Shown: piece after piece, positions 10,790 to 36,457 of the stretch | Position numbering within the stretch: the first letter of the stretch is position 1 | Layout of the letters: the number at the start of each line of letters is the position of its first letter | Source of the DNA: a virus | Taxonomy: Duplodnaviria > Caudoviricetes | IMG/VR virus record: IMGVR_UViG_2852574111_000002 | Span: 1,316 to 65,315 of that record | Reading direction: 5' to 3' (one strand) | DNA: 64,000 nt | The notes under the pieces: generated by a model | What the model saw: the letters and a program-made list of their open reading frames with translations, nothing else | Databases searched by the model: none | What the model was told of the DNA's origin: nothing | Translations under genes and position numbers: made by a program

Positions 10790-10790
10790 C

Positions 10791-14543: not shown

Positions 14544-14555
14544 GTTGTCCTCGGA

Positions 14556-15944: not shown

Positions 15945-15947
15945 TGG

Positions 15948-18900
15948 TCAGCTCCACCAGTCGAAGTATTCAGCGCTTAGATTGAAGTCGATCTTTCCAT
16001 TTGGTGACAAGATGCGGCCGGCAGTGACAGTGCCTATGTTTGCGACAATTGACGAAAGCGTACCGATGTTCATTTTCGGCGCCGTGATTGACCCGTCGAC
16101 GATAAGGTCGCCTTGGATGAAGATGCCGGAGGCATTCGACACGAAGGGCGAGACGCGGATCCCGTTCACGCGGCGCGTCAGCACGAACAGATCGGCCTCG
16201 GCCTCGAAGGTCGAATAGGTGCCGCCGGCATTGCTGTAGGCCGCGATCATCATCGCCGCGCGCGTCGTGTAGACGCCATCGGTCACCTGCGCCGCAGCCT
16301 CGTAGGCGGCCAGCGCCCCGGCCGGCAGCGAGACCGCGGCGACCGTGCGGAAGGTCACATTGGCGTCGAGATTTTCGAGCTCGGCCTGCAGCTGCACGAC
16401 CTGAGACGCGATACCGGCGACGTCGTCGGCGACGACGGTGATCTTCTCCGTATAGGAGGCGGTTACCCGCTCGGCGGAGGCGGTCAGCTGAAAGCCCCAT
16501 TCCTCCTTGTCGAGCCAGTTCTGGGCGTCCTGCTCGGCGAGAAGTTCCGCCATCCGCTCATTGGCGAGATTGGTCGCGGCCAGGGCCTCGCCGATCTGCC
16601 GCTCGACATAGTCCCGCACACCCTTCTCAAAATTCTCCAGCGAGACCTGCACATTGTCGGCGCGCGTCGTCGGCTGCGCCAGATCGACATAGGCCCACGG
16701 TCCCTGCTTGCCGGCGGCGTTCACCGCGGCGACGCCGAGCCGCAACGCCAGCGGCTCCACCTGCTCCGAGAGCTTCGGCATCCGCACGTCCGGCAGCGGC
16801 GTCCAGCTCTCGCCCTCGTCATAGGAAACGCGGGCGACGTAGAAGACCGCACCCGGCACCGGCCCCCACTCGGCCACGATGCGGCAGGGCACCTCATTGG
16901 CGATGAAGCGCGCGCTCAGCAGCAGGGGCTGCGGAAAGGTCGGGTTGCGCGGCGTGTTGGCTTCCGGCAGCGGCGGCGGCTCGGTCAGATCCTCGTCATG
17001 CACGCGGGCATCGTCGACGAAGAGTTCAAGCGACACCCGGTCGCCGGCCGGCGCCGCCCGCGTGACGATGCAGCGGCGCTGCCAGGTCGTGCCGAGACCG
17101 ATGGCGAAGCTCGGAAGCTCGGCGCCCTCGGGGCGCTCCAGCGCGGCGTTCAACGTGCCCTGCGCCGCCTCCACAATGGCGAGGTCGGCGCCGTCGAGGA
17201 TGGCGATGCCGTCATTGGCGCCGCGCGCGCACTTGATCGGGCCGAAGGGGCGGCCGCGTTTGTCGCGGATCAGGATGTAATGCTGGCCGGCCACCCACGC
17301 CGGCGCCTCGTGCAGGTAGAGCGCATTGCCGACGCGGCGCGTCACCTTGCCGGAGGCGCCCCATTGCTGCGGCAGGTCAGATTGCAGCAGCACCGGCGCG
17401 CCGAGATAGAGCAGCCGCCCGTCATGCTCGGTCGTCAGCCGCACATTGATGCGGCGATAGAGGTTCTGCCGCAGCAGGAACTCGACCTCGCGCTGCGCCT
17501 GCGCCCGCTTCACGATGGGCAGCTGCAGCCTTGTCGCGCGGGCGATCTGTTCCTCGGTCGCCGTGCGCGGCGCCACGGCCTCCGCCAGCTGCCAGGTGCT
17601 CTCGTCGAGATATTCGAGCACGGCGCACTGCGCTTCGTCCGTCGGGCGCAGCAGGTACTCAATCTCCAGCGAGCCGCGCACGATCTCCTGGTCGGTGATG
17701 AGCATGCGCGGCACGCTCGACCACTGCTCGCGCACCAACGACAGCGTGCCGGCCATCCACACATGCTTGGCGCGGCAGGCCGAGAGCGCGGTATCAACAG
17801 CCTGCGGCACCGGCACCGTGGCGGCGAAGTCATGGTCGAAGGTGTCGCCGCGGGCCGCGCAGGTGGCGGCGAGATCGACGAAAGCCTGAAAGTCCAGCCG
17901 CGACAGCGGCAGGCTGCCGCCATAGGACGTGTTGGTGACGATATCGAGCGCCGCCCAGGCCGGCGAGCGCGTGGGCTGCTCCACCCATGCCGAACCCGTC
18001 CACACCGGGAGGATGCGCGTCGCCACCTCGGAAAGGCGGGACAGCGCGTCACCAGAGAACTGGTCGGTGGCCTTGGCGCGGATGGCGATGGTCGAGACCG
18101 GGAAGCTCTGCGGCCCGGTCAGGAAGGCGCGCATCTCCGCCCAATTGATCTGGTCGACGATGTTGGTGTCGGTCGCCCGTTCCGTCGTGCGTCGCACGCG
18201 CACCTTGTAGCGCCCCGCAGGCACCTCGGCGGCGAGGCTGAAGCGCAGCGGCGACTTCGAACACAACGGCACGTTCGGGAACGGCCCGACCGAGGTCCAA
18301 TCCCCGATCTCGTTGCCGGCAGCGTCGACCGGCCGGTACTGCATCATCACCGGCACGAAATGCGGGGTGAGCACGCCAGAGTCATTCTGCAGGCCGCAGC
18401 CGTTCGGCATGGACAGGTCGACCACCAGGCGCGTCGCCTGCGTGCCGGCGGCGTTGGCGATGAAGCCGCCGGTCCACGCGGGGAAGTCGAGTTCCTGCCC
18501 GCTCACCTCGGCGGAGGATTCGACGTTCACCGGGAACAGCGTCACCTGCTGGCCGGGATTGTAGAAGGCGATCTGCACGCCGCTGAATTGCGGGTTCACG
18601 CCGGTGCCGCTGGTCCACAGCGGCGTGTCCTCGATCAGGATCTGTTCGGGCTGGAGCCGGTCCTCGCCGCGCGACAGCAGCACATGAATGTACTGGTCGT
18701 TACCCTCATAGCTCGACCATTCCGGCGCCGCCTTGTCGAGCACGCGCTTGCGCCGCCCATAGCAGGACGGAATCGGCTCCAGCGGGCGGGCGAGGTTGAG
18801 GCCGGTTCCCCAGCTATAGATCGGATCAGGCTCGGCCTGGCTGCCGCCGGGCTTCACCGCCATCAGCGTGTTGATGAGGAAGCCGCCGCCGACCATGATG

Positions 18901-19220
18901 GCGCCGGCGGCGGCCTTGGCCGCCACCGTCCCGGCGCCGAACAGTGCACCGCCCGCCCAGGGGGCGAAGGCCGACAGGGCGATGACGCCGACGAGCCCGG
19001 CGATGGAGTTCTGCGTCAGGCCGCCGCCGCGCGGTCGGGACAGGAACTCGACCGCGGAACCCTTGCGGATGCGGCGGGAATTCCAGTTCGCCCGCAGCAC
19101 CGGCTCGCCGTCGACCAGGCAGATCGTCGGCAGGGTGGTGGTGTTCCAGCCGGTGCGGCGCAGGAAGCTGGTGATCGTCTCATTGCGGCGCGGCAGGGCG
19201 CGCGCGAGTTCGATCCCCGG
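15948..19220 (-). pseudogene. Tail tip / host-specificity protein (TipJ-like), 3' part, separated from its start by the satellite
   Basis: Frame stays open from codon 19220 to the stop at 15948; joins in frame to 36451-36410 across the att core to give 1104 aa; YGR motif, C-terminal fibronectin-like and J-like region. Confidence 0.85.
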
Positions 19221-19225
19221 CAGCG
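19219..19225 (+). repeat. Left att core GGCAGCG
   Basis: Identical to 36408-36414; 17 bp from the integrase stop. Confidence 0.85.
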
Positions 19226-19241
19226 GGAGATTTTTGCTTAG

Positions 19242-20492
19242 TTAATTCAACTCACTAGGCGCCATGATCGCGCTATGGTCGCGCCTGCCGCCGCGTGCTG
19301 ACGGCCGCGTCGTCTCCCATTCGGGCAGAATGCCGCCCGAAATAGTGTTCATGGCGGACTCTACGGCGTTGTCTTCCGGGAACAGGTGCCCGTAGACATC
19401 CAGCGTGGTGGACACCTTGCTGTGGCCGACGAACGGCGCCACCTGATGGCCGTTCAAACCCTTCGCAATCAACAGGCTCACGGCCGCATGGCGTAGGGCA
19501 TGGAAGTGGAACTTCGGCCGGCCGTACCGCTGTCCTTCCGGTGCGGGGTGCGCAAGGCCAGCCTTCTTCATCAGAGGACGCCAGACGCCGATGTCGAAGC
19601 CGGAGCGCATGTTCTTGCCGCCGCACGACATGAACAGGAAGCCCTCGTCAGGCCCGCCGAGATGGTCGCGGAGCTCGGCCAGCGCGGCGCGGACGATCGG
19701 CACCATCGGCACGTCCCTGACGCTGGCGTGGGTCTTTGGCTGTTTCAACCCGTTCACCTCGGAATAGGAGTGCCTCACCCTTATCCGGCCCGCGGCGAAG
19801 TCGACGAACTCCCATTGCAGCCCGCAGATTTCCCCCAGGCGCATGCCGCAGAACAGGGCGAGCACGACGAACAGCCGCCGCTGCATGAAGGTTGTCACCT
19901 TCTCACCGCTGTCACGGCGACTTAGGGCCGTGAGCAGCGCGGCGAGGTCGGCCCGGCTAGGGATGGCTATCTTCTGCGGGGCGCTCGGCACGCGCACCTC
20001 TCCGTCGCGGACGACGTTCTGCTTTGCATAGCCCTTCTTCACGGCGAACTTCACGACGAGGCTCATCGCCGTGCGGAACTGCTGCAATGAGCCATAGGCG
20101 TAGGCCTTCGAGCGGCTCGTCAGAAAGGCCTGTAGTTCTTCGGCGTGCAGCTCAGTCATGAGCCGGTGGCCGAATGCAGGCAGGAGGTGATTGTCGAGCA
20201 CGCCCTGATAGTTCTTGATGAATGAGCGCGTCGGCGAGCCCAGGTTCTTGTTCCTCACCTCGCAATCGCGCATCCACTCCTCGCTCACCTTGGCGAAGGT
20301 GAGGGTTTGTGAAGGGGCGACGTGGACCCCCTTCTCGATCTCCGTCTCGACATGCGTCCGGTAGCGATCGGCATCCTTCTTTTTCTTGAAGTTCTTCTGC
20401 CGCCGCTTGCCGGCCTGATCGGTGTAGCGCACTACCCAACGTTCGATGGTCTCGCCCTTGTGAAGGCGCTCATATTTGGCGACGCTCGCCAT
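19242..20492 (-). CDS. int: Tyrosine recombinase / integrase of the satellite
   Basis: GMRLGEICGLQW, KT, FHALRH, GH, LDVYGH catalytic motifs; N-terminal arm-binding WVVRYTD. Confidence 0.93.
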   Translation of the reverse strand: MASVAKYERLHKGETIERWVVRYTDQAGKRRQKNFKKKKDADRYRTHVETEIEKGVHVAPSQTLTFAKVSEEWMRDCEVRNKNLGSPTRSFIKNYQGVLDNHLLPAFGHRLMTELHAEELQAFLTSRSKAYAYGSLQQFRTAMSLVVKFAVKKGYAKQNVVRDGEVRVPSAPQKIAIPSRADLAALLTALSRRDSGEKVTTFMQRRLFVVLALFCGMRLGEICGLQWEFVDFAAGRIRVRHSYSEVNGLKQPKTHASVRDVPMVPIVRAALAELRDHLGGPDEGFLFMSCGGKNMRSGFDIGVWRPLMKKAGLAHPAPEGQRYGRPKFHFHALRHAAVSLLIAKGLNGHQVAPFVGHSKVSTTLDVYGHLFPEDNAVESAMNTISGGILPEWETTRPSARGGRRDHSAIMAPSELN

Positions 20493-20572
20493 GGTCGGTG
20501 ACCTCCTCATTTGTGAGAAAAAGCGCCAGCCGCACAGCACGGCGCGGCTGGCAAATCGGCAATCGCCGCCGA

Positions 20573-20980
20573 TCAGTCAGCCGCCCAGCGGACGCCGGAA
20601 GCGGTGAAGGTGCGCACGCGCACATAGGCGCGGGCGTCGCCGATCAGGATCCAGTTTGTGGAGATGCCCCACCGCGCGCTGAAGTCGGACAGCGCAGAAG
20701 CATCTTCAAGGCAGCGGCGCACGGCGCTGAGCCCTTCCTGCCAAGCCTGTGCTGGAAGGGAGAGCGCCCGGCAGCAGAAGGCCAGACGGGCTTCCATGCC
20801 GCTCAGCAGCCCTTCTACCGGCGCCGTGGCGAGCTGAGCGGGATCGATGCCCTCCAGGGCATGGCAGATGCCGTGCCAGTCAGGGTTGATCAACACTGAC
20901 GCGGGGGGATGTCCAATTTTGGATACACTCCCCGCGAGGTCGGTTCCCCCGACCACCGAGAGCATGGGGCGTACCGTCAT
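20573..20980 (-). CDS. Hypothetical protein
   Basis: ATGA-coupled in the operon upstream of int; C-terminal WGISTNWILIGD. Confidence 0.6.
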   Translation of the reverse strand: MTVRPMLSVVGGTDLAGSVSKIGHPPASVLINPDWHGICHALEGIDPAQLATAPVEGLLSGMEARLAFCCRALSLPAQAWQEGLSAVRRCLEDASALSDFSARWGISTNWILIGDARAYVRVRTFTASGVRWAAD

Positions 20981-21234
20981 GACACCCCCCATTCGAGGTC
21001 GCCGTCACTTCCCCGCGCCCATCCGATTTGCGAGCAGAAGCGCGCGTCCGCTTCTGAGGCGCCGAGGCTGGGTTCAGCGTCGCCGTTCTCCTCGAGGTCG
21101 GCGTCGCCTTCCAACGCGTCCCTGAGAGCGAGCGCGCGTTCGATGATGGATGCGAGCGCCTGGCGCGTGGCGATGCGATCGGCGCTTGCCGGCGGAAGCG
21201 GTCCGCCGAAATCATGATCCACAAGCATGATCAA
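20977..21234 (-). CDS. Small acidic hypothetical protein (DGDADLE..EPSLG type)
   Basis: ATGA-coupled to neighbours. Confidence 0.6.
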   Translation of the reverse strand: MIMLVDHDFGGPLPPASADRIATRQALASIIERALALRDALEGDADLEENGDAEPSLGASEADARFCSQIGWARGSDGDLEWGVS

Positions 21235-21638
21235 CCCTCCGCATGCGCGGCAGCGGCTTCAAGGTTAGCCAGCCACGCGGAAAGGGACGATCGGCGGGCG
21301 CAGACCTTCGCTCCGATCTTGAAGGTGGGTGTGTCGCCTTTGCCAGCGAGGTGATAGACCTTCGCCGGTGTGAGCTTGAGAAACGCCGCTATGGCCGGGA
21401 CGCCATAGAGCAAATCCTCGCTCTCCGACGTCTCCCCAGAATTGGGGCGACGTCCCGCCAAGGTGTCTTCCTGGCACCCTGCCCCGACCGCGGGTGCCCC
21501 GCTGGCGCCGAGCATCGCAAGAAGGATGTCCACGCGCTGTAGCTCGCGCTGGATGTTGTTTCGAATTTCGAGAAGCTCCCGCGCGACATCAGTCGGTGGG
21601 ATGCTGGCCGGCTTTATCCGGCTGGTGTGCATGTTCAT
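21231..21638 (-). CDS. AlpA/excisionase-like HTH DNA-binding protein
   Basis: C-terminal DLLYGVPAIAAFL..VYHL..PTFKIGAKVCARRSSLSAWL. Confidence 0.75.
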   Translation of the reverse strand: MNMHTSRIKPASIPPTDVARELLEIRNNIQRELQRVDILLAMLGASGAPAVGAGCQEDTLAGRRPNSGETSESEDLLYGVPAIAAFLKLTPAKVYHLAGKGDTPTFKIGAKVCARRSSLSAWLANLEAAAAHAEG

Positions 21639-21639
21639 A

Positions 21640-21915
21640 GCTGGTCTCTCAGGTCGTCGGGTTTCCACACCCGTGCCCGGTGACAGACCGGGCAGCCGGG
21701 GGGTGGAAACGCGCCTGAGAGACACGTCGGCACGCTTTTAAGGGTCTCCCCTCTGGACATGGCGCACCGCCCCCGGCCATATTGGCCAAGGTCGGGCGCC
21801 CGCCAAGGCGCACCGCACGCGCTTTCGAGCCCGCCAAGGCTCTCACGCGATTACCGGCATAGCCCGCGCCAACGGGCCGACATGCCGTCTCAGGTCCGGG
21901 TTTCCACACCCAATC
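21640..21915 (-). ncRNA. Putative c4/CI-type antisense RNA leader
   Basis: Two direct copies of TCTCAGG..GGGTTTCCACACCC (21647-21672, 21888-21911) and one inverted copy (21701-21731), upstream of the HTH-int operon. Confidence 0.55.
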
Positions 21916-22027
21916 CCATTTATGCGCTGCTTCGCCCCCTCCGCCAAGAGGGGTTAGCGAACGCGCGCCGATTGCGCTATCGAAGCGCCAATGCCACGCT
22001 CCGATGCAGGGTTATTGGGGGGCGAAG

Positions 22028-22873
22028 ATGGCGGATAGAAGCTCAATTTCATTCGAACAAGCTGAAGGCGCGGCCCCTCTGCCCGCTCAGTTGCAATTGA
22101 AAACTGTATCTCGCGAGCTTGTCGTTCGGCTGTATGATGTTTTTCATACCCGTGTGAGACGTGCCAGCGTCGCTCTAGGGCCCGGCTGGATCGATGTGTT
22201 CCGAGATGAATTTGTACGACGTCAGCACAAATTCTCCAATGAATTCTCGGCGAATTGGGACTTCAATCTCCAATACGTTCGACGAACTCTTAATAGCATG
22301 GACTACCTTGAGATATTCGGGTTGCTACAGTGGATAATTCGACATGAGTCGACGCCATATGACTTCACAGAAGCCATAGCAGAGTGTTTGGTTGACTGCC
22401 GGGCGGCATATCGAATTATCGACCATGATACCATAGCGCCGATATCTGACCCGGCCGAGACAGAAGCGCTAGAGTCTGCTCTGGAAGCAGCAAGGTCTTC
22501 TGGCATTTCAGGCGCTCGCTCCCATCTCCTATCTGCAACTGAAGCGGCGACCGCCGGCAGGAACGCGGATTGCATCCGCGAGAGCATCCACGCCGTTGAA
22601 GCTGTTGCGCTGGCCTTAGCGCCAGGGTCCAGAGAGTTGGGCCCGGCCCTCGCAAAGCTCGAGGCCGCAGGGGCGATCCACGGGGCGCTAAAGACAGCGT
22701 TCCGCAGTTTGTACGGCTACGCCAGTGACGAGAAGGGCGTCCGCCATTCTCTCCTCGATCAGGACGCAGCAAAAGTGGACGAGTCCGACGCTCTGTTCAT
22801 GCTCGGCGCATGCGCCTCCTTCGTGAGCTATCTCATTGCTAAGGGCCGAGCAGCCAAGCTGATCAGCGACTAG
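22028..22873 (+). CDS. AbiJ-NTD4-like abortive infection protein
   Basis: SFEQAEG..PLP.QL N-terminus; CIRESIHAVE..IHGALKTAF..LYGYASDEKGVRHSL C-terminus. Confidence 0.7.
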   Translation: MADRSSISFEQAEGAAPLPAQLQLKTVSRELVVRLYDVFHTRVRRASVALGPGWIDVFRDEFVRRQHKFSNEFSANWDFNLQYVRRTLNSMDYLEIFGLLQWIIRHESTPYDFTEAIAECLVDCRAAYRIIDHDTIAPISDPAETEALESALEAARSSGISGARSHLLSATEAATAGRNADCIRESIHAVEAVALALAPGSRELGPALAKLEAAGAIHGALKTAFRSLYGYASDEKGVRHSLLDQDAAKVDESDALFMLGACASFVSYLIAKGRAAKLISD

Positions 22874-22981
22874 CCCCCTGCGACAAGTGAAGATGCGAGC
22901 GCGCGTGCTTGCCGGGATCCTATGAGGATTTGGCGCCGGCACGCAAAACGGTATGATCACGCCGACAACTCAGCATGAGAC

Positions 22982-24664
22982 ATGGACGTGTGCGAAAAGG
23001 TTCTTCTAGGCATATGCCTAACCCGCCCTCCCTTGAACGAAACGGCCGGAATATTCGGTTTTGCTGAGTTTGTGACCGCGTTCGCGCTGCTGATCTTGGT
23101 TTACAATGCAACAGACCCACTCTACCGATTCCGAATATCCGTCGCTCCCCTACCCGTCTTCCGAATAACGTTCTGGTCAATCACACTAATCGGCCTAGGA
23201 TCGCTTGGATCAGATCTCTGGTTTGCGCAGCGTTGGCCCGCCCCCGCATTGGGCGTCTCACAGGCTGTCATTCAAGCTATACTTGGCGCCACGTTCTTAT
23301 CAGTTGCCTTGCTCTGGCTCTGGTTTGCCTTCGTTTCACCGCCGAAATTCGGAAAGAGCAACTACTTACGATTTTCCGGCTCCCTCTACGGCGTGATCGT
23401 CAAGGGATCAGACAAAGAGCTGTCTCAAGTCGCGGGTGAGCTTATTCGTTCAGCTGCTCCCCTGATCAAATTCAGCAGCGCCGCCGCAAGGCGCGAGGCC
23501 ACCCCACCAGCCGTATCTCAGCACGCGTACGACATATTACTACTCCTCGCCAATCGAAAGATGTGTCGAAACATCGTGCATCATTCGCCAACAACAGCCA
23601 TTGCGATTATGCGCGAAGCGTCGATTGCAAATATCGCCGGATTGCCATTGTCACAATTTGCAAAAAACATCACATCGGAGGCACTTTTATACAGCGACTC
23701 ACCGCTTTATCATGAAAACAATTTACATACCTCCGGTCTTCTCGGTTACGTGCGACCATTCAAGAATGCCCTGTATGGAGATTACAAGCTCGTCGAAACC
23801 TTGGCTCGACAAAGCTCGTCACCATTAGACATCGGGTGGACACTCTCGTCGTCACTCACGGTAACCCAGTTGGAAGCGTACTTAGACGCAGTACTCGTCA
23901 CCTTCTCGAATTTTGTTGAACTTAAATCCTGCAATGAGCATTCGATTTCGCTGTATCGGGCGCTTGATGTTGCCAGACACTGTGCGATAGGCATTCGCGA
24001 TGGCGCCAATGAAGACATGCCACCGGACATCAGCCCTCGACGCAAACTGGGCCTCGCTGCTCGATTTTCTGCAAAGATGGTCGAGATACTACAAGATTCC
24101 GAGACTTTGCCGACACCTCCGACCGTTCGCCCGAAGGGTGTTAAGCCACGAGGTGATAACTCTATTTACGCGCATATCGCTGAACTGATGTACCAGCTAA
24201 TCTTTTTGGCTTCGAAGGTGAAAAGTTCACCCGAGGAAGCCTGGCGGATTCAGCAGAACGCGGTATGGAGCCAGATCTTTTCCTACCGTGACAATGACGC
24301 CGCGTGGCGTGCGATATCGTCTCGGCTTCGACGGAGGATTTATGACCATGTTGTCGAATTGGAGACCTTACCGAACTATAGCTCCTCCAAAATACTTGGA
24401 ATGTGCCTAAATGTAATGGATTTGTCGGAAACATACTCGGGAGGAGATCGAGGTTACGCCGCTTTGCAAAAGGTTGTCATGAGATGGACGAAGCGACATT
24501 ATATGACTTTAGCCGAGAAGCACCATTTGGTGGCCGCAGACTGCTTGTCAGGCGGCATCACTTTTGACGCTGCGGAGCGACGCTTGGTTAAGACGTATTT
24601 CTTAGGACTTGGACTGGAGCCGGCGCGCTCCTACCTCAATCTTGATCCCGCGAGGGCGACTTAG
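22982..24664 (+). CDS. 560-aa hypothetical membrane protein (about 3 N-terminal TM helices, helical cytoplasmic domain)
   Basis: Long AT-richer ORF with hydrophobic N-terminal segments. Confidence 0.75.
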   Translation: MDVCEKVLLGICLTRPPLNETAGIFGFAEFVTAFALLILVYNATDPLYRFRISVAPLPVFRITFWSITLIGLGSLGSDLWFAQRWPAPALGVSQAVIQAILGATFLSVALLWLWFAFVSPPKFGKSNYLRFSGSLYGVIVKGSDKELSQVAGELIRSAAPLIKFSSAAARREATPPAVSQHAYDILLLLANRKMCRNIVHHSPTTAIAIMREASIANIAGLPLSQFAKNITSEALLYSDSPLYHENNLHTSGLLGYVRPFKNALYGDYKLVETLARQSSSPLDIGWTLSSSLTVTQLEAYLDAVLVTFSNFVELKSCNEHSISLYRALDVARHCAIGIRDGANEDMPPDISPRRKLGLAARFSAKMVEILQDSETLPTPPTVRPKGVKPRGDNSIYAHIAELMYQLIFLASKVKSSPEEAWRIQQNAVWSQIFSYRDNDAAWRAISSRLRRRIYDHVVELETLPNYSSSKILGMCLNVMDLSETYSGGDRGYAALQKVVMRWTKRHYMTLAEKHHLVAADCLSGGITFDAAERRLVKTYFLGLGLEPARSYLNLDPARAT

Positions 24665-24762
24665 CGGCGGCCGGCCCGTCGTCCTCGCTCGAATAGGCCT
24701 AGCGCGCCCCATCGATATCGAACGGCAAGACGGTGGCGACGTCGACGCAAAGAGAGCTCCGC

Positions 24763-25713: not shown

Positions 25714-25864
25714 CTCATCTGCGCTAAGGCATTTCCCCACCCTGCAAGGCGTCAGGAATCACGATGTGGTCGTTTGCATCGCCCCATCGCGGATTTGCGC
25801 GCCCCGCACCGGTGCTCGACTCCGGACGCCTTCCCGAGCAGACTGGCGCTCTGGGAGAAAGCCA

Positions 25865-26457: not shown

Positions 26458-26493
26458 GGTGATCGTTCTCCCAGCACCTGCTGAGCTATATGA

Positions 26494-28095: not shown

Positions 28096-28097
28096 GG

Positions 28098-28511: not shown

Positions 28512-28562
28512 AGCGATCAGCTCTCCCATCTTGAGAACGGATGGTCACTCAATCGCCGCCAA

Positions 28563-28823
28563 GTGCCGCTACGGCAGGCCATGGCGAGGTCGCCAGGAGG
28601 ATGGGTGGTGTCCGGGGAATACGTGCCGACCGATGCGTACCGATTGCTGGGACGGTTGAGAGTCAGCGGCCAGATACGGCTCGAGGCGGGCCAGGCCGAC
28701 CACGATGGCGCCATCTCCTTTCTGCTCGCGCGCGGCTTGGCGCATCGCTCCGCGAACGGCGCGGAGCTGCGGATCACCGACAAGGGGCGCCGAGCCGGTC
28801 GCATCACGAAGACCGCTCCCTAG
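28563..28823 (+). CDS. Small hypothetical protein, antisense between HNH and terS
   Basis: Winged-helix-like end LRITDKG; start uncertain. Confidence 0.35.
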   Translation: MPLRQAMARSPGGWVVSGEYVPTDAYRLLGRLRVSGQIRLEAGQADHDGAISFLLARGLAHRSANGAELRITDKGRRAGRITKTAP

Positions 28824-29157
28824 AGCCGCGCTTCTCCTGCGCCTGCTTCCACCGGCTATGACAGGAGGTGCAGAGCGGCTGCCAATTGGAGCGCGACCAG
28901 AACAGCCGCTGATCGCCCTTATGCGGGACGATGTGGTCGACGACCGATGCCGGCGCGTCGCAGCCAGGCCGGGCGCAGCGCGGATTGAGCTTCAGGAACG
29001 CTGCGCGCTCCTTTTCCCACTTGCTGTCATAGCCGCGCTCGCGCGCCGGCACGCGGCGCTGCTCATAGGCCGCCTTGCGCTTGCGCTCGCAGGGGCAGCG
29101 TTCGCCCGAGGCGATGCGATGACCGCATCCGCAAATCCGAGGCGCGCGTACCGGCAT
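28804..29157 (-). CDS. HNH endonuclease (terminase-associated, satellite)
   Basis: RGYDSKW, C..C..VVDHIVPH.G..FW..NWQPLC..CH. Confidence 0.92.
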   Translation of the reverse strand: MPVRAPRICGCGHRIASGERCPCERKRKAAYEQRRVPARERGYDSKWEKERAAFLKLNPRCARPGCDAPASVVDHIVPHKGDQRLFWSRSNWQPLCTSCHSRWKQAQEKRGSRERSS

Positions 29158-29164
29158 GGCCGCC

Positions 29165-29770
29165 TCACGCGAAGCCCGGCAGCCGGTACGGCGCCAGGAG
29201 GTCGGTGACATCGGCCGGCAGCGAAGACGGCAGGCCATAGGAGAAGGAACCGACGCCGTCGACATCCTCGCTGCGCATGGTCTGGTCGCGGCCGCGTGTG
29301 TGCCAGGCATTGCGCACCGCAAGGATCGCCGCCCGCTCTATGTCGGCCGGCAGGTCGCGCCCCTCATCGCCCGGCAGGAGAAAGCCGGCGGTGTAATCGA
29401 CGAGGATCCGACCGGGCGACCACACCGAGCGGGCGGCGGACGAGGTGAGCCGGTAGATCATGCCGGTCCCGGCGTCCGCCTCATAGAGCGCCGACGCCAG
29501 CGAGCCGGCTTCCGTGGTGACGGAGGTGATGGCCGCGATCGGAAAGCGGCTCAGCAGCAGCACCGCTGCCGGCTCGGCGAGATGGACGGTCTCGCGCACG
29601 CCTTCGCGGGCGAAGACCCGCCCGCACCAGCTCTCAATCGCCCGGCTCGCCTGGCCGATCAGTCCGCCGAGATAGATGTCCGCGGTGCCATCGGTAACCT
29701 CGAGCTCGAGCTTCACGGCGTCGAGCGTCGTCAAATCGCGTTTGGTGGCCGGCGTGATGACGGTGAGCAT
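29165..29770 (-). CDS. Head-tail connector protein (satellite)
   Basis: MLTVITPA..LTTL..VK; homologous to helper 44716-45315. Confidence 0.8.
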   Translation of the reverse strand: MLTVITPATKRDLTTLDAVKLELEVTDGTADIYLGGLIGQASRAIESWCGRVFAREGVRETVHLAEPAAVLLLSRFPIAAITSVTTEAGSLASALYEADAGTGMIYRLTSSAARSVWSPGRILVDYTAGFLLPGDEGRDLPADIERAAILAVRNAWHTRGRDQTMRSEDVDGVGSFSYGLPSSLPADVTDLLAPYRLPGFA

Positions 29771-29975
29771 GAACATTCCTCGGAAGAGAGGGCGGACGCA
29801 GCCTCGCGCTGCGCCCGCCGGTGAGCCCTTGGCCTGTCTTTGGTCAGGCTGGTGCTCGCGACCTTCCCCGCCTTGCCTCCCATGAACCCCGTTCGGCAGG
29901 GTGGCGCCGGAGAGGCGGGGTTTCCGTTGTTGGGCAGGCCGCTACGTGCCCTCAAGGCTCGGCGCCCGAACGGCG

Positions 29976-30404
29976 TCAGGCCACCGGGCGCTCGCGCGCG
30001 TGGCCCTTGATGACGGTGGCGGCGAGCGGCGTGGCCGTGCCGTGCGTGCCGGAGAAGTCGGCAAGCAGCTTGATGAAGCGCCGATTGCCGACATAGCCGA
30101 CGCGGGTCACGCTCGGGTCGGGGTGCGCCGCCTTCAGCGCCAGCACGATGCCGGAGGTGACGCCGGCGACGCCCTGAACATCGGCGTCGGTCACCGGCTC
30201 ATAGGTGGCATCGTCATCCGAATGGGTGAGCTTGAACTCGAGCTTGTTCGTGGCGCTGAAGCTGATGCCGCCGGTGCCGACATGGATCGCCAGCATGGCG
30301 GAATCGAAGCCCTTGAGATCGATCGCCGCCGGGGTGTTGTCGGCGTCATAGGGCGCCGGCGCGATGACCGAGGCTACGGCGATGTTGCTGATGATGTCCC
30401 GCAT
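29976..30404 (-). CDS. Putative capsid decoration protein (satellite)
   Basis: Follows the capsid gene; homologous to helper 46049-46474 (MRD.ISNI, .GYVG.K/R). Confidence 0.6.
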   Translation of the reverse strand: MRDIISNIAVASVIAPAPYDADNTPAAIDLKGFDSAMLAIHVGTGGISFSATNKLEFKLTHSDDDATYEPVTDADVQGVAGVTSGIVLALKAAHPDPSVTRVGYVGNRRFIKLLADFSGTHGTATPLAATVIKGHARERPVA

Positions 30405-30469
30405 GGACAGGATCCTCTGAGTTGGAGCGATGGGGTGTCGGTTCGACCGACGCCCTCAGGTACTTCCGA

Positions 30470-30497
30470 GACGTGTCCCCAAATTTGGGGACACGTC
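30470..30497. repeat. Perfect 28-bp palindrome
   Basis: GACGTGTCCCCAAATTTGGGGACACGTC. Confidence 0.85.
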
Positions 30498-30502
30498 CGC
30501 TG

Positions 30503-31708
30503 TCAGGAGGTCGCCATCTTGAGCTTGCGCAGCGCGCGAGCCTGAACCACGCCGGCGCCGGTGCGGCGGGTGGCATGGATACGGGTGATGCCCTCGGTGG
30601 CGCGGATGTACGGGTTGACGAGGATCGACAGCGCCAGGCGGTCGACGATCCGGTAGGCCGTGGCGAAGTCGCCGAACAGGATCGGAAAGGTGCCGGCGGC
30701 GACATCGGGCATGTCGACGGCTTCGACCACAGGGCGGCCGAGGATCATTTCGGGCTGGCCGGCCTGATAGGAGGGCTGCCAGAGATAGTTGCCCTGGCCG
30801 TCCTTCATGGTGCGCAGCTTGGCCAGCGTGCCGCCGTTCATCAGCCAGGAGCCACGGGCACGGTACGCCGCCGGCAGCGCGTACATCAGCGCGATGAGCT
30901 GATCGGCGGAGAGGGTCGTCGCGTGGCCGTTCAGCGTCTCGGCGATGCCTGCCGCGGTGAGCAGGCCTTCCGGCTCCAGCACACCATTGCCGGAGACGAA
31001 GGCGAGGCCTTCCTTCTGGCCGAAGTCCTCGGCGAACGCGAGGCGGGTTTCGGCTTCCGCCGTACCGCCGGAATCGGCGAGCAACTGATTGGAGAAGTCG
31101 ACGAAGGTGTTCACCTCCCGGATCGGGATTTCCACCTGGCCGAAGCTCGGCTCGCTGCCCTCCTGAGGCTGCGTCTCGCCCTTCCATTTTGCGTTCGTCC
31201 GGCCCGTCCGGCGAGGATATGACACGGCCGGCGCCGTGGTGGTGCGCACCGTGGCGAGGGTGCGGATGGGCGAGAACTCGACGATGTCGCGGACGAACTC
31301 GGTCGACATCTCGGTCGGCGCCAGATAGCCGCCCTGCGTGTCCGACGAGACGGTGAGCACCTTCAGCTCGGCTTCCGGCGCGCGGTCGCCTTGGCGCAGA
31401 TAGGTGGCGAACGCCTTCTGCTCGGTGCTCGGCTCGCCCTTGGTCTCGCCGGTGCCGTTCGGGCGGTTGCCCTTGGCCTCCAGCTTGTCGAGCCGCTCGG
31501 TGAGCTTCGACACCGGATCGTCCTTCGGCTCCGGCGTGGTGCCCTTGCCCTCCAGTGCGGTGATGCGGTCGCCCAGCGCCTTCTGGCCGTCGGTGACGGT
31601 CTTGGTGAGAGCGTCGAGCGCCTTGGTGACGACCTCGCTCGGATCGTCATTGTCGCCCTTCAGCTCGACCGCGCCGGGCGCCAGCACATGCAGGCAGGTA
31701 TGCTTCAT
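30503..31708 (-). CDS. Major capsid protein, HK97 family (satellite)
   Basis: GGYLAP, LMNGGTL..L..MKDGQGNYLWQ, ILFGDF..Y.IVDR. Confidence 0.93.
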   Translation of the reverse strand: MKHTCLHVLAPGAVELKGDNDDPSEVVTKALDALTKTVTDGQKALGDRITALEGKGTTPEPKDDPVSKLTERLDKLEAKGNRPNGTGETKGEPSTEQKAFATYLRQGDRAPEAELKVLTVSSDTQGGYLAPTEMSTEFVRDIVEFSPIRTLATVRTTTAPAVSYPRRTGRTNAKWKGETQPQEGSEPSFGQVEIPIREVNTFVDFSNQLLADSGGTAEAETRLAFAEDFGQKEGLAFVSGNGVLEPEGLLTAAGIAETLNGHATTLSADQLIALMYALPAAYRARGSWLMNGGTLAKLRTMKDGQGNYLWQPSYQAGQPEMILGRPVVEAVDMPDVAAGTFPILFGDFATAYRIVDRLALSILVNPYIRATEGITRIHATRRTGAGVVQARALRKLKMATS

Positions 31709-31710
31709 CG

Positions 31711-32214
31711 TCAGCTTCCTCGAATGGCCGCTTCCGCGCGGCGGATGGATTCGGCGAGGGCGAAGGCTCCCGCCGCGGACTTGGCGGAAGTGACCTTCGC
31801 GCCGGGGTGCATGGGCGCGCTCACCAGCGACACCTCAAAAAGCTCAAGCGCCTTGATGGTCCGGCCGCCGCCGCTGCGGGCCGCCGCCTTGCGGGTGACG
31901 AAGCCGATGGACAGGCCGCGCACCGCGCCGGCCTTCACCAGCGCGCGGACCTCGCGGGCGCGCGCCACCTCGTCGACGAGGAGCCGGCCGGCGACGTGCA
32001 GGCCGTCCGCCTTCTCCTCCACCCGGTCCCACGCCCCGACGGGATCGTTGAGGTCGTGGCCGAACAGCATGGGCAGCGGCAGCTTGAGGCCCTTGAAGGC
32101 GCCCGGTTCGATCCAGTCGCCGATGCGATCGGGCGCGCCGAACTTCCATGCCAGGCCGGAGATCGCCCCGCTTTCGTCCGCCAGCACCTTGGTCTCGAAG
32201 AAGGCGCGTTCCAT
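31711..32214 (-). CDS. HK97 prohead protease (satellite)
   Basis: GLSIGF, LFEVSLV..PM. Confidence 0.9.
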   Translation of the reverse strand: MERAFFETKVLADESGAISGLAWKFGAPDRIGDWIEPGAFKGLKLPLPMLFGHDLNDPVGAWDRVEEKADGLHVAGRLLVDEVARAREVRALVKAGAVRGLSIGFVTRKAAARSGGGRTIKALELFEVSLVSAPMHPGAKVTSAKSAAGAFALAESIRRAEAAIRGS

Positions 32215-33395
32215 CAGTCTTCCTCGCGGCGGGCCGGCCCGGTGGTGCGGGTGGTCACGGTGACGTTGGGATTGGCGTATTCCTCGCCGCCGGCGCGCGG
32301 CGGCAGGTCGAGCCAGTCGCGGCCCTCATTCGGGTTCAGCACCCGCGCGGAGATGAGCGAAGAGATCGCCGTCGCGCGTTCGGTAAGGCTGGCGCGGGTG
32401 AGGTCGTCGCGATCGAACAGGATCCGGTACTCGCGCCGCTCTTCCGGCGTGAACAGCGCCCGGCTTAGGGCGCCCTCAAGCGCGCGCAGCCACGGCTCCA
32501 GCGAGTAGGTCAGGAACTCCTTGCCCATCTGCTCGGAGTTGGACCAGGTCGCGCGGTCCAGCTCGTAGAGCATGGACGGCGGCACACGGAAGGCGCGGGC
32601 GATCTCGACGATCTGGAATTTTCTCAACTCGAGGAATTGCGCGTCGGTCGACGCTAGCGTCAGCTGCGTGTACTTGGCGTCATCGTCCAGAACGGCGGTG
32701 CCGCCGGCTTTCCCCGGGCCATGCGCCGCGTTCCAGCCTTCCTTGGCCCGCCGGGCGCCCTCCGGTGTGAGCTTGCCCTTGAAGGAGATGACGCCGGCCG
32801 GGCGACCGCCGTTCTTGAAGAGCCCGCCGGCGTGCGCCTCCATGATCTTGGCGACGCCGATGGCGTCCGCTGCCAGCGACAGCGGGCACCGCGCAAAGGG
32901 CGGGCGCAAATGCACCACGTCGTCCGCCGAGACTGGGACATTGTTGATGCGGAAGCTGGGCTCAAGCCGTCCGTCGCCGGAATAGTCGACCGTGAAGTGC
33001 GCCGGTTCATAGCGCACCAGCTCGATTGTGCGCCCATCCACCTTGTTCGCGAGCGCCAGCGCGCCCTTGTCGCTGATCAGCGCGGCGGCGACCATGTCGC
33101 GGATGAACTCGAAACGCGACGTCCAGTCGTTTGGGCGATCGGCGAGCAGCCGCGCCGCAGGATGTTCTGGCGCCTCGGCTTCCGTGCCGCCTATCCGGTG
33201 CATGACCCTCAGCTCGAGGCAAGCCGCGGGTTCCGAGATCAGCCGGATCGCCGACTGCGCTGCCGGCACAGTCAATGCCTGAGCCGCGCCAACGGACAGG
33301 CCGGAGGGCAGCGCGCCGAGCAGCGCTTGCAGCTCCGAATCCGGCGCCGCTAGGCTCTTCGTCGTCCTGAACCATCCTGAGAGCCGCTGAAGCAC
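32214..33395 (-). CDS. Portal protein, HK97 family (satellite)
   Basis: F.NG.RP.G, DAQFLE.RKFQI.EIARAFRVPP. Confidence 0.92.
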   Translation of the reverse strand: MLQRLSGWFRTTKSLAAPDSELQALLGALPSGLSVGAAQALTVPAAQSAIRLISEPAACLELRVMHRIGGTEAEAPEHPAARLLADRPNDWTSRFEFIRDMVAAALISDKGALALANKVDGRTIELVRYEPAHFTVDYSGDGRLEPSFRINNVPVSADDVVHLRPPFARCPLSLAADAIGVAKIMEAHAGGLFKNGGRPAGVISFKGKLTPEGARRAKEGWNAAHGPGKAGGTAVLDDDAKYTQLTLASTDAQFLELRKFQIVEIARAFRVPPSMLYELDRATWSNSEQMGKEFLTYSLEPWLRALEGALSRALFTPEERREYRILFDRDDLTRASLTERATAISSLISARVLNPNEGRDWLDLPPRAGGEEYANPNVTVTTRTTGPARREED

Positions 33396-33456
33396 GTCTG
33401 ACCTCGACTAACCTACTGACAAATATTGAAAAACCCTATTTGGCCTCTATCTCGCG

Positions 33457-33478
33457 CGGTGGACCCCAAGCGGTCCGG
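33457..33478. other. Putative cosN core of the satellite
   Basis: CGGTGGACCCCAAGCGGTCCGG, dyad GGACC-N6-GGTCC, intergenic upstream of portal; 18/22 identical to helper 52445-52466. Confidence 0.65.
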
Positions 33479-33623
33479 CGCCCCTACGGCAAAGTTGCCG
33501 ACCGCCCCCCGTCTGGCGTCTCGGTGGCCTGCTCTCCGCCGCGGAGAGGTGAACTTTAGGCATGCTCCAGATGTGCGCCGCGTCGCTCATGGTTGTCCAT
33601 CCCCTTATGTCACTAAACTTAAG

Positions 33624-33824
33624 TCAACTTCGGTCATCTTCGGACTTGCGAGAAGATATCCACGCATCAAGCTCATCCTGATACGCGCACAGCGGCGACG
33701 TTCGACCTGTCGCGAGGCGAAACACCGGCAGGCCTGAGCTCGCCGCCAACCGATGCACTGTCTTCTGGGATACCTCCAAGTATCTCGATATCGCCCACGC
33801 CGTCTTGATGACACGCCGTTGCAT
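33624..33824 (-). CDS. Small HTH DNA-binding protein (excisionase/AlpA-like)
   Basis: AISRYLEVSQKTV.RL...LPVF...ELDAW. Confidence 0.7.
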   Translation of the reverse strand: MQRRVIKTAWAISRYLEVSQKTVHRLAASSGLPVFRLATGRTSPLCAYQDELDAWISSRKSEDDRS

Positions 33825-33877
33825 TCGCCTCTGCTCCTCGTCGAGCCGCGCCCTATAGACCGCAGATATAGAAGGGG

Positions 33878-33997
33878 GTGTACTTTTGTAGACTAGGGGT
33901 GCCTCAGCGCGATCAATGGCTTAGAGCCGAGGTGGTGTACAATTGTAGACCTATGGCAGTGTACAAATGTGAACCGTAGAGGTCTACAAATGTACAC
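33878..33997. promoter_or_regulatory. Putative satellite replication origin with four 16-bp iterons
   Basis: GTGTAC-W4-GT(A/G)(G/A)AC at 33878, 33935, 33959 and inverted at 33982; abuts the stop of the putative rep. Confidence 0.7.
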
Positions 33998-34462
33998 CTA
34001 TTCATCCGACGGCTTGGCGGCATCGGTCGAATACCGCCGCCACTCATCAGTCGGGCTTTCCCATGTCCAGCTATGTGGGCCTGTCTGGTCCCGCGTGGCG
34101 TAGAAGGTGAGCCGGAAACGGCTCATCTCGGTCATGGTGGTGCCCCTGCGCCCTCCCCGCTCAACCGACACGAGCCCACGCTGCACGGCTTCTGCGATGG
34201 CGGCAGGGATGTAGCGACGGGCGATGCCGTAACCTTCAAGCTGGCGGTAGGTGGCGGACAGGCGACCGTTTTCCTGTCCCGCGTTCGCCATGTGCTCGAT
34301 TGTCAGAAACTCGATGAGCCGCACGCAGTTGATCGACCTGCCGCGCCATGCCTCCGACGACATGAGGTCAATGTCCAGCCATACCCAAGGGCGTCCCTCT
34401 GGTGGGCCGGCGGCATCCTTTGCACGCCCGGTCTGGCGCCGCCGCGACCTAGGAGGGCTCAA
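33998..34462 (-). CDS. Putative winged-helix replication initiator
   Basis: WL..DLMSS.AWR, ENG.L.ATY, I..A..RGLV; iterons directly downstream. Confidence 0.6.
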   Translation of the reverse strand: MSPPRSRRRQTGRAKDAAGPPEGRPWVWLDIDLMSSEAWRGRSINCVRLIEFLTIEHMANAGQENGRLSATYRQLEGYGIARRYIPAAIAEAVQRGLVSVERGGRRGTTMTEMSRFRLTFYATRDQTGPHSWTWESPTDEWRRYSTDAAKPSDE

Positions 34463-34697
34463 ACGGCAACTCGCCCTTGCGACGAGCCTCCGCCAAGGCC
34501 AGGCACACCGCGTCGGCGAAGTCTGGCAGCCGATCCATGGCGAAAGTGATGCCAGTCTTGCTCGGCCTCATATCGCCGTCGCCGGCGTCGAACCACACGC
34601 GGGCGCTGAACACGGCCCGGCCGTTGAACTGCCCAAGCGTTACGCGGATTTCTTCGCGGCTGTTCTTCTTCACCGCGGCAACCACAACGTCGTTCAT
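34449..34697 (-). CDS. PC4/p15-family ssDNA-binding protein
   Basis: KNSREEIRV.L..FNG...RVWF..GD.RPSK.GI. Confidence 0.8.
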   Translation of the reverse strand: MNDVVVAAVKKNSREEIRVTLGQFNGRAVFSARVWFDAGDGDMRPSKTGITFAMDRLPDFADAVCLALAEARRKGELPFEPS

Positions 34698-34945
34698 GAT
34701 TGTGTCTCCCCTGCGTGGATCGCGACGAGCTTGAGCTCGGTGGCGATGTCGACGGCTCTGTTCACTTCGTCTGGCGTGAGATCGGGCCACCGATCGTGCA
34801 TGGCCGTCGCGATGCGCTGCGGATCGCTCCATGGGTCCCCGGTGGGTGCTGCCTCTTCCACGAGCCAGCGAGCCACCTCTGGCACCCGATCCCGGTTTGC
34901 GGGGTCTCCGGCCTCAGGCGGGCCTACGTTGACGTCAGCGCCCAT
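34694..34945 (-). CDS. Hypothetical protein
   Basis: Coupled within the satellite early operon. Confidence 0.5.
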   Translation of the reverse strand: MGADVNVGPPEAGDPANRDRVPEVARWLVEEAAPTGDPWSDPQRIATAMHDRWPDLTPDEVNRAVDIATELKLVAIHAGETQS

Positions 34946-34947
34946 GT

Positions 34948-35991
34948 TCAGCCCGCCCACGCCGGATCGTTCGCCAGATGATCGGCGAGCACCTGAAGCC
35001 CCTTCGGCGTGACGACCGCCTGCGTGCCGATCACCGTCTCGCCATCGCGCTCATAGGAGACCGGCCGATGGTCCATCAGCCCGGCCCTGCACTTCTCCGC
35101 GTGCGCCAGCCAATCGCCCTTGCCGCCCCGCCGGTATATCCAGCGGTGCCGGTAGAGCTTGGCGAAGAATGGCTTCACGGGATGCGAGAGAGCCTTCGCC
35201 GCGTCGGTGATGCACATGGCGCCGGCGGCCGTTCCGATCCGCGCCAACGCACCCTCTGCTTTCGCGAGAGCGGCTTGCGCGGTTGTGGCCTCTTGATGCC
35301 AGTGCGAGAGCACAGCAGCGACCACGCGCGGATCGGCGGGGTTGATCAGGCTCGCCGGCTCCGCCTGCCGCGCTTCCAACTCCATCCAGCGATCGATGAT
35401 CCGCGCGCGGAGCTCCACGCTGTAGCCCGAAACGAGGATCAGGCACTCCCGCTTGGGCAGCAGGAACACCTTGGAAGGACGGCCGCCGGCGGACGGTTCG
35501 GACTTTTCCTCAAGAGTGAGGGAAAGCCCCTCGGCGAGGTTCTTGATGTCCCGGCGCACGTTGTCGTGCTCCTTGCCGGTCAGCTCCGCGATTTCGCGGG
35601 ACGACATGGTGAGCGGCTCGGCATCGGGCACAATCCCCGGTGAGGCCACCACACCGCCGGCCGGCGGGCGGCCCGGCTCCAGGCTGCGCTTGCGCGCTTC
35701 CCGATCGAATGCTTCGGCGTAGCGTTCCCGGCGCTTGCCAGCATTCGGCCCCGTCAGGCCACGGGCGAGCATCAGGAAGCCCTCCCGCGTCATCCAGTAG
35801 AACCGGCGCCCCGGCTCGCCGACCTCGCGGAAGTGGCCCGCCATATCGGCCCCGTTCTCGCCGAGGAGATCGTCCACCGCGCGGAGGATCAGAACGTGAT
35901 CGCGCTCAAAATAGGCGGCCACGTCCCGACTGGCAGCCATCGGCACGCTCTTCACGGTCGTCACCACCGGTAGCAGGAAGGAATCAACCAT
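34948..35991 (-). CDS. Rha-Rha-ANT(KilAC) antirepressor-type regulator
   Basis: Two Rha-like domains (SRDVA.YF..DH; MSSREIAELTGKEHDNV) and C-terminal CITDAAK..VTPKGL. Confidence 0.82.
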   Translation of the reverse strand: MVDSFLLPVVTTVKSVPMAASRDVAAYFERDHVLILRAVDDLLGENGADMAGHFREVGEPGRRFYWMTREGFLMLARGLTGPNAGKRRERYAEAFDREARKRSLEPGRPPAGGVVASPGIVPDAEPLTMSSREIAELTGKEHDNVRRDIKNLAEGLSLTLEEKSEPSAGGRPSKVFLLPKRECLILVSGYSVELRARIIDRWMELEARQAEPASLINPADPRVVAAVLSHWHQEATTAQAALAKAEGALARIGTAAGAMCITDAAKALSHPVKPFFAKLYRHRWIYRRGGKGDWLAHAEKCRAGLMDHRPVSYERDGETVIGTQAVVTPKGLQVLADHLANDPAWAG

Positions 35992-36202
35992 CGGTCGAGC
36001 CCTCCGGCTTCCGGGCCTTGGCCTCAAGATCGGCGAGCCATGCGGAAAGGCTCGCGCGGCGGGCGCAGACATTTCGCCCGATTTTGAAAGCGGGAATTTC
36101 CCCCGTGGCAACGCGGTGCTTTGCCTGCCGAGGCGTTAGCCGAAGGTATTTAGCTATGGCCTCAAACCCGTAAAGCAGATCGGATTCGTCGTTCGTATCC
36201 AT
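35984..36202 (-). CDS. AlpA/excisionase-like HTH DNA-binding protein
   Basis: DLLYGFEAIAKYL..PAFKIGRNVCARRASLSAWL; first gene inside the right att site. Confidence 0.78.
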   Translation of the reverse strand: MDTNDESDLLYGFEAIAKYLRLTPRQAKHRVATGEIPAFKIGRNVCARRASLSAWLADLEAKARKPEGSTDG

Positions 36203-36318
36203 ATGGTCCTAAACCTCGCTGTGGTCGCGTCGTGGTCGTGTCGCGGTCGCGCGGCGGTGCCGCCTGTCTTTGTCCGTCTGTGTTTTTTCAAGGACTTAGT
36301 CGGCCCGTCTCGGGCAAC

Positions 36319-36353
36319 AAAAAGCCCGCCAATGCCGATGACAAAGGCGGGCT
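36319..36353 (-). terminator. Intrinsic terminator just inside the satellite, facing incoming helper transcription
   Basis: Minus strand AGCCCGCC-15 nt-GGCGGGCT-TTTT, about 55 nt beyond the att core. Confidence 0.6.
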
Positions 36354-36407
36354 ATCCAATTGTTCCAGCTAGTCTTTTTCGACGTCTACGCTTGGAGCTT
36401 CATATAA

Positions 36408-36414
36408 GGCAGCG
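36408..36414 (+). repeat. Right att core GGCAGCG
   Basis: Identical to 19219-19225. Confidence 0.85.
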
Positions 36415-36451
36415 CGATGTGCAGCACCGGCAGGTAGGCGACAGCGGCCAT
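36408..36451 (-). pseudogene. 5' fragment (MAAVAYLPVLHIALP) of the interrupted tail-tip gene
   Basis: ATG 7 nt after the NlpC gene stop; in the integrated state it runs into satellite DNA and stops after 21 aa. Confidence 0.8.
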
Positions 36452-36457
36452 GAAGGA

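Follow-up and report, generated by a model that had tools for sequence, protein, structure and literature searches.

How does a prophage come to have its tail-tip gene cut after the fourteenth codon by a block of DNA that itself encodes a virion head? The question is raised by a stretch of 64,000 nt (the window) from a metagenome-derived provirus record (IMGVR_UViG_2852574111_000002, positions 1,316-65,315; Duplodnaviria; Caudoviricetes), in which the gene for a TipJ-like tail-tip protein (tipJ) lies in two pieces on either side of a 17,189-bp element (19226-36414, minus strand, counted with one copy of its core; the backbone genes are co-oriented with tipJ). We conclude with good confidence that the element is a capsid-forming, tail-less satellite lodged in the gene for the tail-tip protein of a complete prophage, and that a helper-embedded arrangement has here been reached by an integrase lineage unrelated to the one described for such satellites. 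Gene assignments are based on profile matches to PHROG, Pfam and PADLOC.

Sequence and BLAST breakpoints place a 7-bp core, GGCAGCG (no strand assigned), at both junctions: at 19219-19225 on the integrase side and at 36408-36414 on the side of a Rha/ANT regulator gene. On the minus strand, the ATG at 36451 opens 14 codons (MAAVAYLPVLHIAL) and then runs into element sequence; the resulting 5' stub (36386-36451, minus strand) translates as MAAVAYLPVLHIALPYMKLQA* and ends after 21 amino acids, 14 of them native codons and 7 element-encoded, followed by the stop. The 3' body occupies 15948-19225 (minus strand), with a core copy at its upstream end, and supplies codons 15-1104 once the gene is restored. 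It matches central tail fiber J (phrog_31, E 2.7e-93) and the Pfam families FNIII-A_GpJ, Phage-tail_3 and Phage_Tail_Tip. When the 17,189 bp are removed in silico and one core copy is kept, ATG 36451 is joined to the frame entering at 19220, which gives an open reading frame (ORF) of 1104 amino acids beginning MAAVAYLPVLHIALPGIELARALP. The split falls between codons 14 and 15, within the conserved motif LPVLHIA-L-PG.

A 7-bp repeat alone could be due to chance; the predicted join was therefore tested against intact relatives, which match it. Two uninterrupted alleles, P0001 (1104 aa, from a Xanthobacteraceae metagenome-assembled genome, or MAG) and P0241 (1106 aa, from a Microvirga MAG), have the N-terminus MAAVAYLPVLHIALPGIELARALPRRNET, identical to that predicted, and their first 14 residues are those of the stub. 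TipJ homologues from Starkeya and Ancylobacter (51-61% identity) all share the start M..A..LPVLHIA[LA]PGIELARA. At the DNA level, BLASTN alignment of the window with one intact locus (L021) breaks at 36408 and 19225, with an overlap of 7 bp that corresponds exactly to the core; a second (L002) breaks at 36408 and 19223, its core having a one-base variant. A preliminary description of this DNA had reported the two cores, the 21-aa stub and the uninterrupted 1104-aa frame, and had expected intact homologues to start with a PVLHIALPG-like sequence. Each of these points was borne out: such a start is present in P0001, P0241, Starkeya and Ancylobacter, and the search that it had proposed for uninterrupted tipJ alleles yielded the first two. 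The N-terminal 130 residues of intact TipJ have a weak match to Lambda_tail_I (E 0.009), suggesting that TipJ may be a fused gpI-gpJ protein from which the insertion removes the first strand. A PDB sequence search with TipJ gave one weak tail-protein match only.

The element's genes encode a head without a tail, and except where stated they lie on the minus strand. The first gene past the upstream junction encodes a Rha/ANT (Bro-network type) regulator (34948-36111; Phage_pRha, ANT and phrog_63). Next comes a PC4-like protein (34449-34832; Pfam PC4, E 4.3e-10; 33-57% identical in seven related elements), which from its Pfam family we take to bind single-stranded DNA. A 154-aa ORF, for which an Atlas look-up gave an HTH_36 lead only, separates the PC4-like gene from a four-copy array of GTGTACAWWTGTAGAC (33878-33997, in both orientations; six strand-matches versus none expected). 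The window has no further copy of this motif. The array, with the 154-aa gene on one side and a small helix-turn-helix (HTH) gene upstream of the portal on the other, is operator- or iteron-like and a candidate operator or origin. This HTH gene precedes the head operon and encodes a 66-aa HTH_17/PrtN-like regulator (33624-33824), an AlpA-like candidate whose matches to HTH_17 (E 5e-4) and PyocinActivator (E 0.045) both fall below the cut-offs.

Then follow the portal (32214-33395; phrog_12, E 2.3e-95), the prohead protease (31711-32214; phrog_80, E 2.7e-41), an HK97-type major capsid protein (30503-31708; phrog_10, E 5.9e-71), a 142-aa protein, a gp6-like head-tail adaptor (29165-29776; phrog_442, E 1.6e-33), an HNH endonuclease (28804-29322; Pfam HNH, E 3.5e-7), TerS (28098-28529; phrog_83, Terminase_4) and TerL (26494-28101; phrog_9, E 2.6e-140; TerL_ATPase and TerL_nuclease). 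Since the listed HNH frame overlaps the adaptor gene, its true start is probably further in. Beyond TerL, in the direction of tipJ transcription, lie a gene for a 164-aa protein and a low-GC cargo block on the plus strand (22004-25713; GC 0.51-0.56). The block encodes a 289-aa PDC-S32 (AbiJ_NTD4-like) protein (PADLOC, E 2.4e-51), a 560-aa phrog_25374 protein and a 326-aa trypsin-like, PDC-S45-like protein (PADLOC, E 6e-15), and by these matches its genes are candidates for a role in defence. Another 164-aa protein (21231-21725), with a C-terminal HTH_17, is a candidate excisionase or regulator (phrog_66, E 4.7e-5; HTH_17, E 2e-4, below the cut-off). After two small ORFs the element ends with its tyrosine integrase (19242-20540; phrog_1, E 5e-62; Pfam Phage_integrase, Phage_int_M and a weak Arm-DNA-bind_4), which faces outward and whose stop codon is 16 nt from the core. 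Repeats resembling TGGTCGCG are weak candidates for attP arm sites.

No ORF of the element has a PHROG match to a tail or lysis family, and a replication family (primase or replicase) was found among them with neither PHROG nor Pfam. The preliminary description had credited the element with an integrase, rep/ori, cos and all head and packaging genes, and with no tail or lysis genes. Of these, the integrase stands, as do the genes for head and packaging and the lack of matches to tail and lysis families, whereas rep/ori and cos are unsupported: no replication protein was found, only the PC4-like gene and the four-repeat array.

The prophage around the element, its presumptive helper, is a complete HK97-like temperate siphovirus, and its host is probably a bacterium of Hyphomicrobiales. 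Its late genes upstream of tipJ (36458-52852, minus strand; PHROG matches and homologies) comprise HNH, TerS, TerL, portal, protease, major capsid protein, adaptor, head closure and neck, followed by a tail terminator, a tube candidate (classed by PHROG as 'minor tail protein'; its position suggests the tube), a chaperone, an 1100-aa tape measure, an M-like protein, a DUF1833 minor tail protein and a 138-aa protein in the K position before tipJ. Downstream of tipJ (10791-15944, minus strand, including small ORFs) are a 462-aa protein without a family match, assumed from its position to be a fibre (14556-15944), a 424-aa tail fibre (13269-14543) and the endolysin (10791-11516); the early region has an O-like replication gene and CII- and CI-like regulators. 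The head modules of helper and satellite are distinct, because their genes are only 25-44% identical: 25% for TerL, 44% for HNH (helper copy at 52505-52852) and 34%, over the full length, for the adaptor (44716-45393; E 1e-24).

From this gene content a course of events can be proposed. The satellite would have inserted by means of its own tyrosine integrase at the 7-bp core in the LPVLHIA-L-PG motif, and would make its own procapsid, portal, adaptor and terminase. Being without tail, lysis or recognisable replication genes, it would have to borrow all three from a helper, for which the surrounding phage is the obvious candidate. The J protein of lambda starts tail assembly. If TipJ does the same, neither partner would obtain tails until the integrase, together with an excisionase, removes the element precisely, and by this analogy a gating of tail assembly by satellite excision is plausible. 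Once excised, the satellite would package itself in its own capsids and take the helper's tails and lysis; it would have been replicated passively as part of the induced composite, which fits an element without a replication gene. The likeness of the two adaptors is what would be expected if satellite heads dock onto this phage's tails. Excision would presumably occur on induction, and helper virions would be delayed until then.

The consequence of integration for tipJ itself is more direct. The element brings no replacement 5' end, so that its integration rules out the synthesis of full-length TipJ. The first in-frame start for the tipJ body, and the sole one before 19050, is GTG 19100, which has no clear ribosome-binding site and would cost 54 residues. 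About 35 nt past the stub stop, folding reveals a terminator-like, GC-rich hairpin followed by UUUUUG (36318-36353, minus strand; minimum free energy -38 kcal/mol and z -2.65 for 36300-36400 on this strand), which a simple terminator scan did not return. It could also stop late transcription short of the tipJ body and of the fibre and endolysin genes, a polar effect. The integrase ORF and the tipJ body share a reading frame, with one TAA between them (19239-19244), and a 1097-aa open frame is reported here. The shared frame is probably a coincidence; fusions of int with late genes have been noted at some sites of helper-embedded satellites (PMC10111431).

The preliminary description had ended on the statement that no described system has this arrangement, which does not hold. 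Tommasini, Mageeney and Williams (2023; PMC10111431) reported 491 helper-embedded phage-inducible chromosomal islands (HE-PICIs) in prophage late genes, one of them in gene J; all are from Enterobacteriaceae and share one integrase clade. Their quantitative PCR and deep sequencing followed excision of the composite, then replication, then excision of the satellite, and their model, also put forward in the preliminary description, has the broken late gene held back until the satellite leaves (PMC10111431). The window element is alike in lying inside a prophage late gene on the same strand as the helper's late operon, in having an attP without replacement sequence, so that the late gene is broken until excision, in belonging to an integrase lineage that repeatedly takes new late-gene sites (portal, terminase, capsid and tail genes including J), and in its Bro-type (Rha/ANT) regulator.

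It differs in descent and in layout. Its integrase is 21% identical to that of Eco567.11capE, has a weak Arm-DNA-bind_4 rather than Arm-DNA-bind_3, and stands in the tree on a very long branch separate from 11capE. It is the last gene, faces outward and lies beside the 3' fragment, whereas the HE-PICI integrase is the first gene and faces inward. The published zones run, in order, int-AlpA, Bro, replication (primase) and late (PMC10111431); the window element has the Rha/ANT and late zones, its integrase and HTH genes are placed at the downstream end, and none of its ORFs was recognised as a primase. The doubled HE-PICI attP motif TGTATTGC was found neither within 400 bp on either side of the reconstructed attP, with one mismatch allowed, nor as an exact match in the element. 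Its site is tipJ codon 14 rather than Phage-tail_3:153, its relatives with a named host are alphaproteobacterial and not from Enterobacteriaceae, and it has a full set of portal, protease, capsid, adaptor, HNH, TerS and TerL. To judge from its sequence, the window element works like an HE-PICI, outside the HE-PICI clade.

That full set of head and packaging genes recalls the capsid-forming PICIs (cf-PICIs; Alqurainy et al. 2023, preprint 10.1101/2022.09.08.507074; SatelliteFinder model, PMC10085698). At 17.2 kb the element is comparable in size to the published set, which has a median of 14 kb (PMC10085698), the integrase, HNH, TerS, TerL, portal, protease, capsid and head-tail connector are common to both, and tail and holin gene matches are missing from the window element, tails (and lysis) being expected from a helper. 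Unlike a cf-PICI, it has no detected primase or replicase and a weakly supported AlpA, its genes are arranged differently, the integrase being at the far end, and it occupies a prophage gene and not a chromosomal site. The text of the cf-PICI survey mentions no Alphaproteobacteria (PMC10085698). The novelty lies in an independent lineage of integrases, apparently from Alphaproteobacteria, that target late genes, and in a capsid-forming satellite housed within the gene for a tail-tip protein, part of the sole virion structure that the satellite cannot make.

Another parallel is regulated gene integrity, or active lysogeny, as with the skin element in sigK of Bacillus and phi10403S in comK of Listeria. 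There, too, a mobile element interrupts a gene that precise excision restores at a defined moment. In the window the interrupted gene is the helper phage's, and the likely beneficiary is the satellite and not the cell.

To see how far the late-gene habit extends, we surveyed integrases 33-51% identical to that of the window. The loci come mostly from a viral-contig collection; those in IMG/VR were retrieved with an alignment query, a search with the window integrase as single query having returned nothing in IMG/VR and remote matches only in genomes. At least 12 relatives adjoin or split late genes of other prophages. In Logan assemblies (L012/L007), a DUF4055 portal gene is split by a 17,146-bp element with 15-bp direct repeats, and the join restores 488 amino acids; in Azospirillum sp. 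A26 (L014), a gpA-type terL is split by a 16,418-bp element with 29-bp direct repeats. A further portal gene in IMG/VR (L036) is present as both fragments, with an 11-bp repeat and a 10.9-kb element. In another Logan assembly (L013/L010), an element of about 17.5 kb lies between ORFs of 414 and 563 aa, a probable split of a tail gene after the tape measure; BLASTP did not tie this gene to TipJ, and the candidate core is 6 bp. The integrase of Xanthobacter sediminis (L016) adjoins the last 59 codons of a DUF1833 tail gene, after which come K- and J-like genes.

Four IMG/VR integrases (L024, L025, L031 and L033) adjoin the 3' part of the capsid gene in a protease-capsid fusion and form one clade with 100% support. 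The core is TTCCT[GC]CGGCC in L024 and L025, with a weaker 9-bp candidate in L031, and the elements of these three are about 10 kb long; no join was found for L033. Also in IMG/VR, integrases adjoin the 3' parts of a cap_E capsid gene (L032) and a tail fibre gene (L026), and two more lie within tail modules (L027 and L028); the 5' junctions of these four were not located within the flanks examined. In all prophage cases the element is co-oriented with its target and the integrase lies beside the 3' fragment or downstream tail genes. The lineage as a whole takes tipJ, the DUF1833 tail gene, tail fibre, portal, capsid and terminase as targets. Where the preliminary description had proposed to look for related integrases in tipJ of other prophages, many late-gene sites came to light and only one occupied tipJ:14 site. 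Structural genes are common across the element family (TerL up to 75% identical), relatives of 16.4-17.5 kb occur, and those with a named host are from Alphaproteobacteria.

The contents of the family vary. Directly after TerL, where the window element has its defence-candidate cargo, three relatives have a tape-measure-like gene of 630-776 aa (L007:4940-6832, L010:5039-7369 and L016:4911-6935; phrog_10574, one with VanY), and they also have tail-completion and chaperone genes. Because of these genes, some members may build part of a tail. A PC4-like gene was seen in L024, L025 and L033, and the elements of L024, L025, L031 and L033 (approximately positions 800-11330) have no portal or terminase. 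The AAA_25 gene of one relative is absent from the window element. The Azospirillum element (L014 with L018/L019; CP170472.1, about 2253284-2269702) places a lambda-type head module of its own (gpA-type terL, Phage_portal_2, capsid_4/gpT and cement) inside the resident gpA-type terL; one integrase lineage has thus been combined with quite different morphogenesis modules.

As a joint proposition, we consider it fairly likely that an alphaproteobacterial integrase lineage, unrelated to the HE-PICI clade, acquired its preference for prophage late genes independently, and that the lineage carries modular satellites, ranging from forms of about 10 kb without portal or terminase to capsid-forming ones of 17 kb. 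If so, helper embedding would be a convergent, general strategy of satellites, and in the window, where the target by analogy with lambda starts tail assembly, the satellite's excision would be the checkpoint for every tail in the cell.

Several observations weigh against the proposed helper-embedded satellite. The core is only 7 bp long, and the sole occupied tipJ:14 site is that of the window and an identical second assembly. The exact strings of attP (CATATAA-GGCAGCG-GGAGATT) and of restored attB are absent from IMG/VR and JGI contigs, an absence that says little on excision, as assembled contigs drop rare forms. No replication gene was found in the element, and the AlpA-like assignments (E 2e-4 and 5e-4) are below the Pfam cut-offs. 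A 1050-aa product from GTG 19100 may be partly functional. One relative, in Ancylobacter pratisalsi (L015; CP048631.1), lies on a plasmid outside any prophage, on a 160-kb replicon beside MobA/TraC/TraD/TraG conjugation genes (Rha/ANT 57% and integrase 37% identical to the window's); this may be an off-target or alternative site. Finally, most surveyed relatives stem from a viral-contig collection, which favours phage surroundings, although this does not explain integrases placed directly against truncated late genes.

The short core, the want of an excision product in contigs, the single occupied locus and the plasmid relative, along with the off-target integrations known for HE-PICIs (PMC10111431), are what a dead-end accident would leave behind: the element would have used a chance secondary site in tipJ and killed the prophage, no coupling would have evolved, and excision might no longer occur. 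We consider this unlikely, given that at least 12 integrase relatives are likewise placed next to or within late genes of other prophages, in every case in the orientation of the target, that the ORFs of element and helper are both intact, and that TipJ homologues retain the target motif.

More doubtful still is a reading in which one prophage is nested in another, the element being either a small temperate phage that is autonomous or a prophage in decay. An outward-facing integrase at the element's end is usual in prophages, several relatives have tape-measure-like, tail-completion and chaperone genes, and five of the element's ORFs have no assigned function. However, 17.2 kb contain no match to a tail tube, tail tip, holin or endolysin, and no replication gene was found; the packaging and head genes stand alone, as in the model of a capsid-forming satellite, and against decay, size and backbone are conserved across hosts. 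An assembly chimera of two unrelated phage contigs joined at a short repeat, for which the metagenomic origin of the record and the occurrence of the Rha/ANT-side junction in this record only might speak, is extremely improbable, because a separate Logan assembly of SRR35147599 (L023) is 100% identical to window 14256-29100, across the integrase-side junction, and because both junctions lie on the same 7-bp core and removal gives an ORF that matches two natural alleles at the join residue for residue.

A capsid-forming satellite embedded in its helper's tail-tip gene extends helper-embedded satellites past Enterobacteriaceae and past one integrase clade, and suggests that embedding in a helper structural gene has more than one origin. 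Such embedding may be a widespread means by which satellites remain associated with a helper and control when the helper produces virions. Capsid formation and helper embedding are united here in one element, and the interrupted gene encodes the very structure that the satellite must borrow. Such nested elements also mislead prophage and satellite callers, the composite being scored as one provirus, and they bring defence-candidate cargo into prophages.

A few observations concern the resident prophage and its relatives. The composite was also considered as a single phage with two head modules, a candidate ruled out by the element-free intact alleles and the exact borders. The prophages of L002 and L021, with intact tipJ, have only the tail-tip region in common with the window (36408-42010, 80-94% DNA identity). 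Their tape measures (684 and 1238 aa) differ from that of the window (1100 aa), and the head module of one of them is different. The background in which the conserved 5' end of tipJ is set is thus highly mosaic. A 1008-aa ORF on the plus strand (45206-48232), opposite the capsid, protease and connector genes, was rejected as an antisense artefact of high GC and no gene. To the left of the lysis region, a second low-GC block (2623-9372; 0.53-0.59) has weak glycosyltransferase-, sulfotransferase- and methyltransferase-like matches and could hold host surface-polysaccharide genes or prophage morons.

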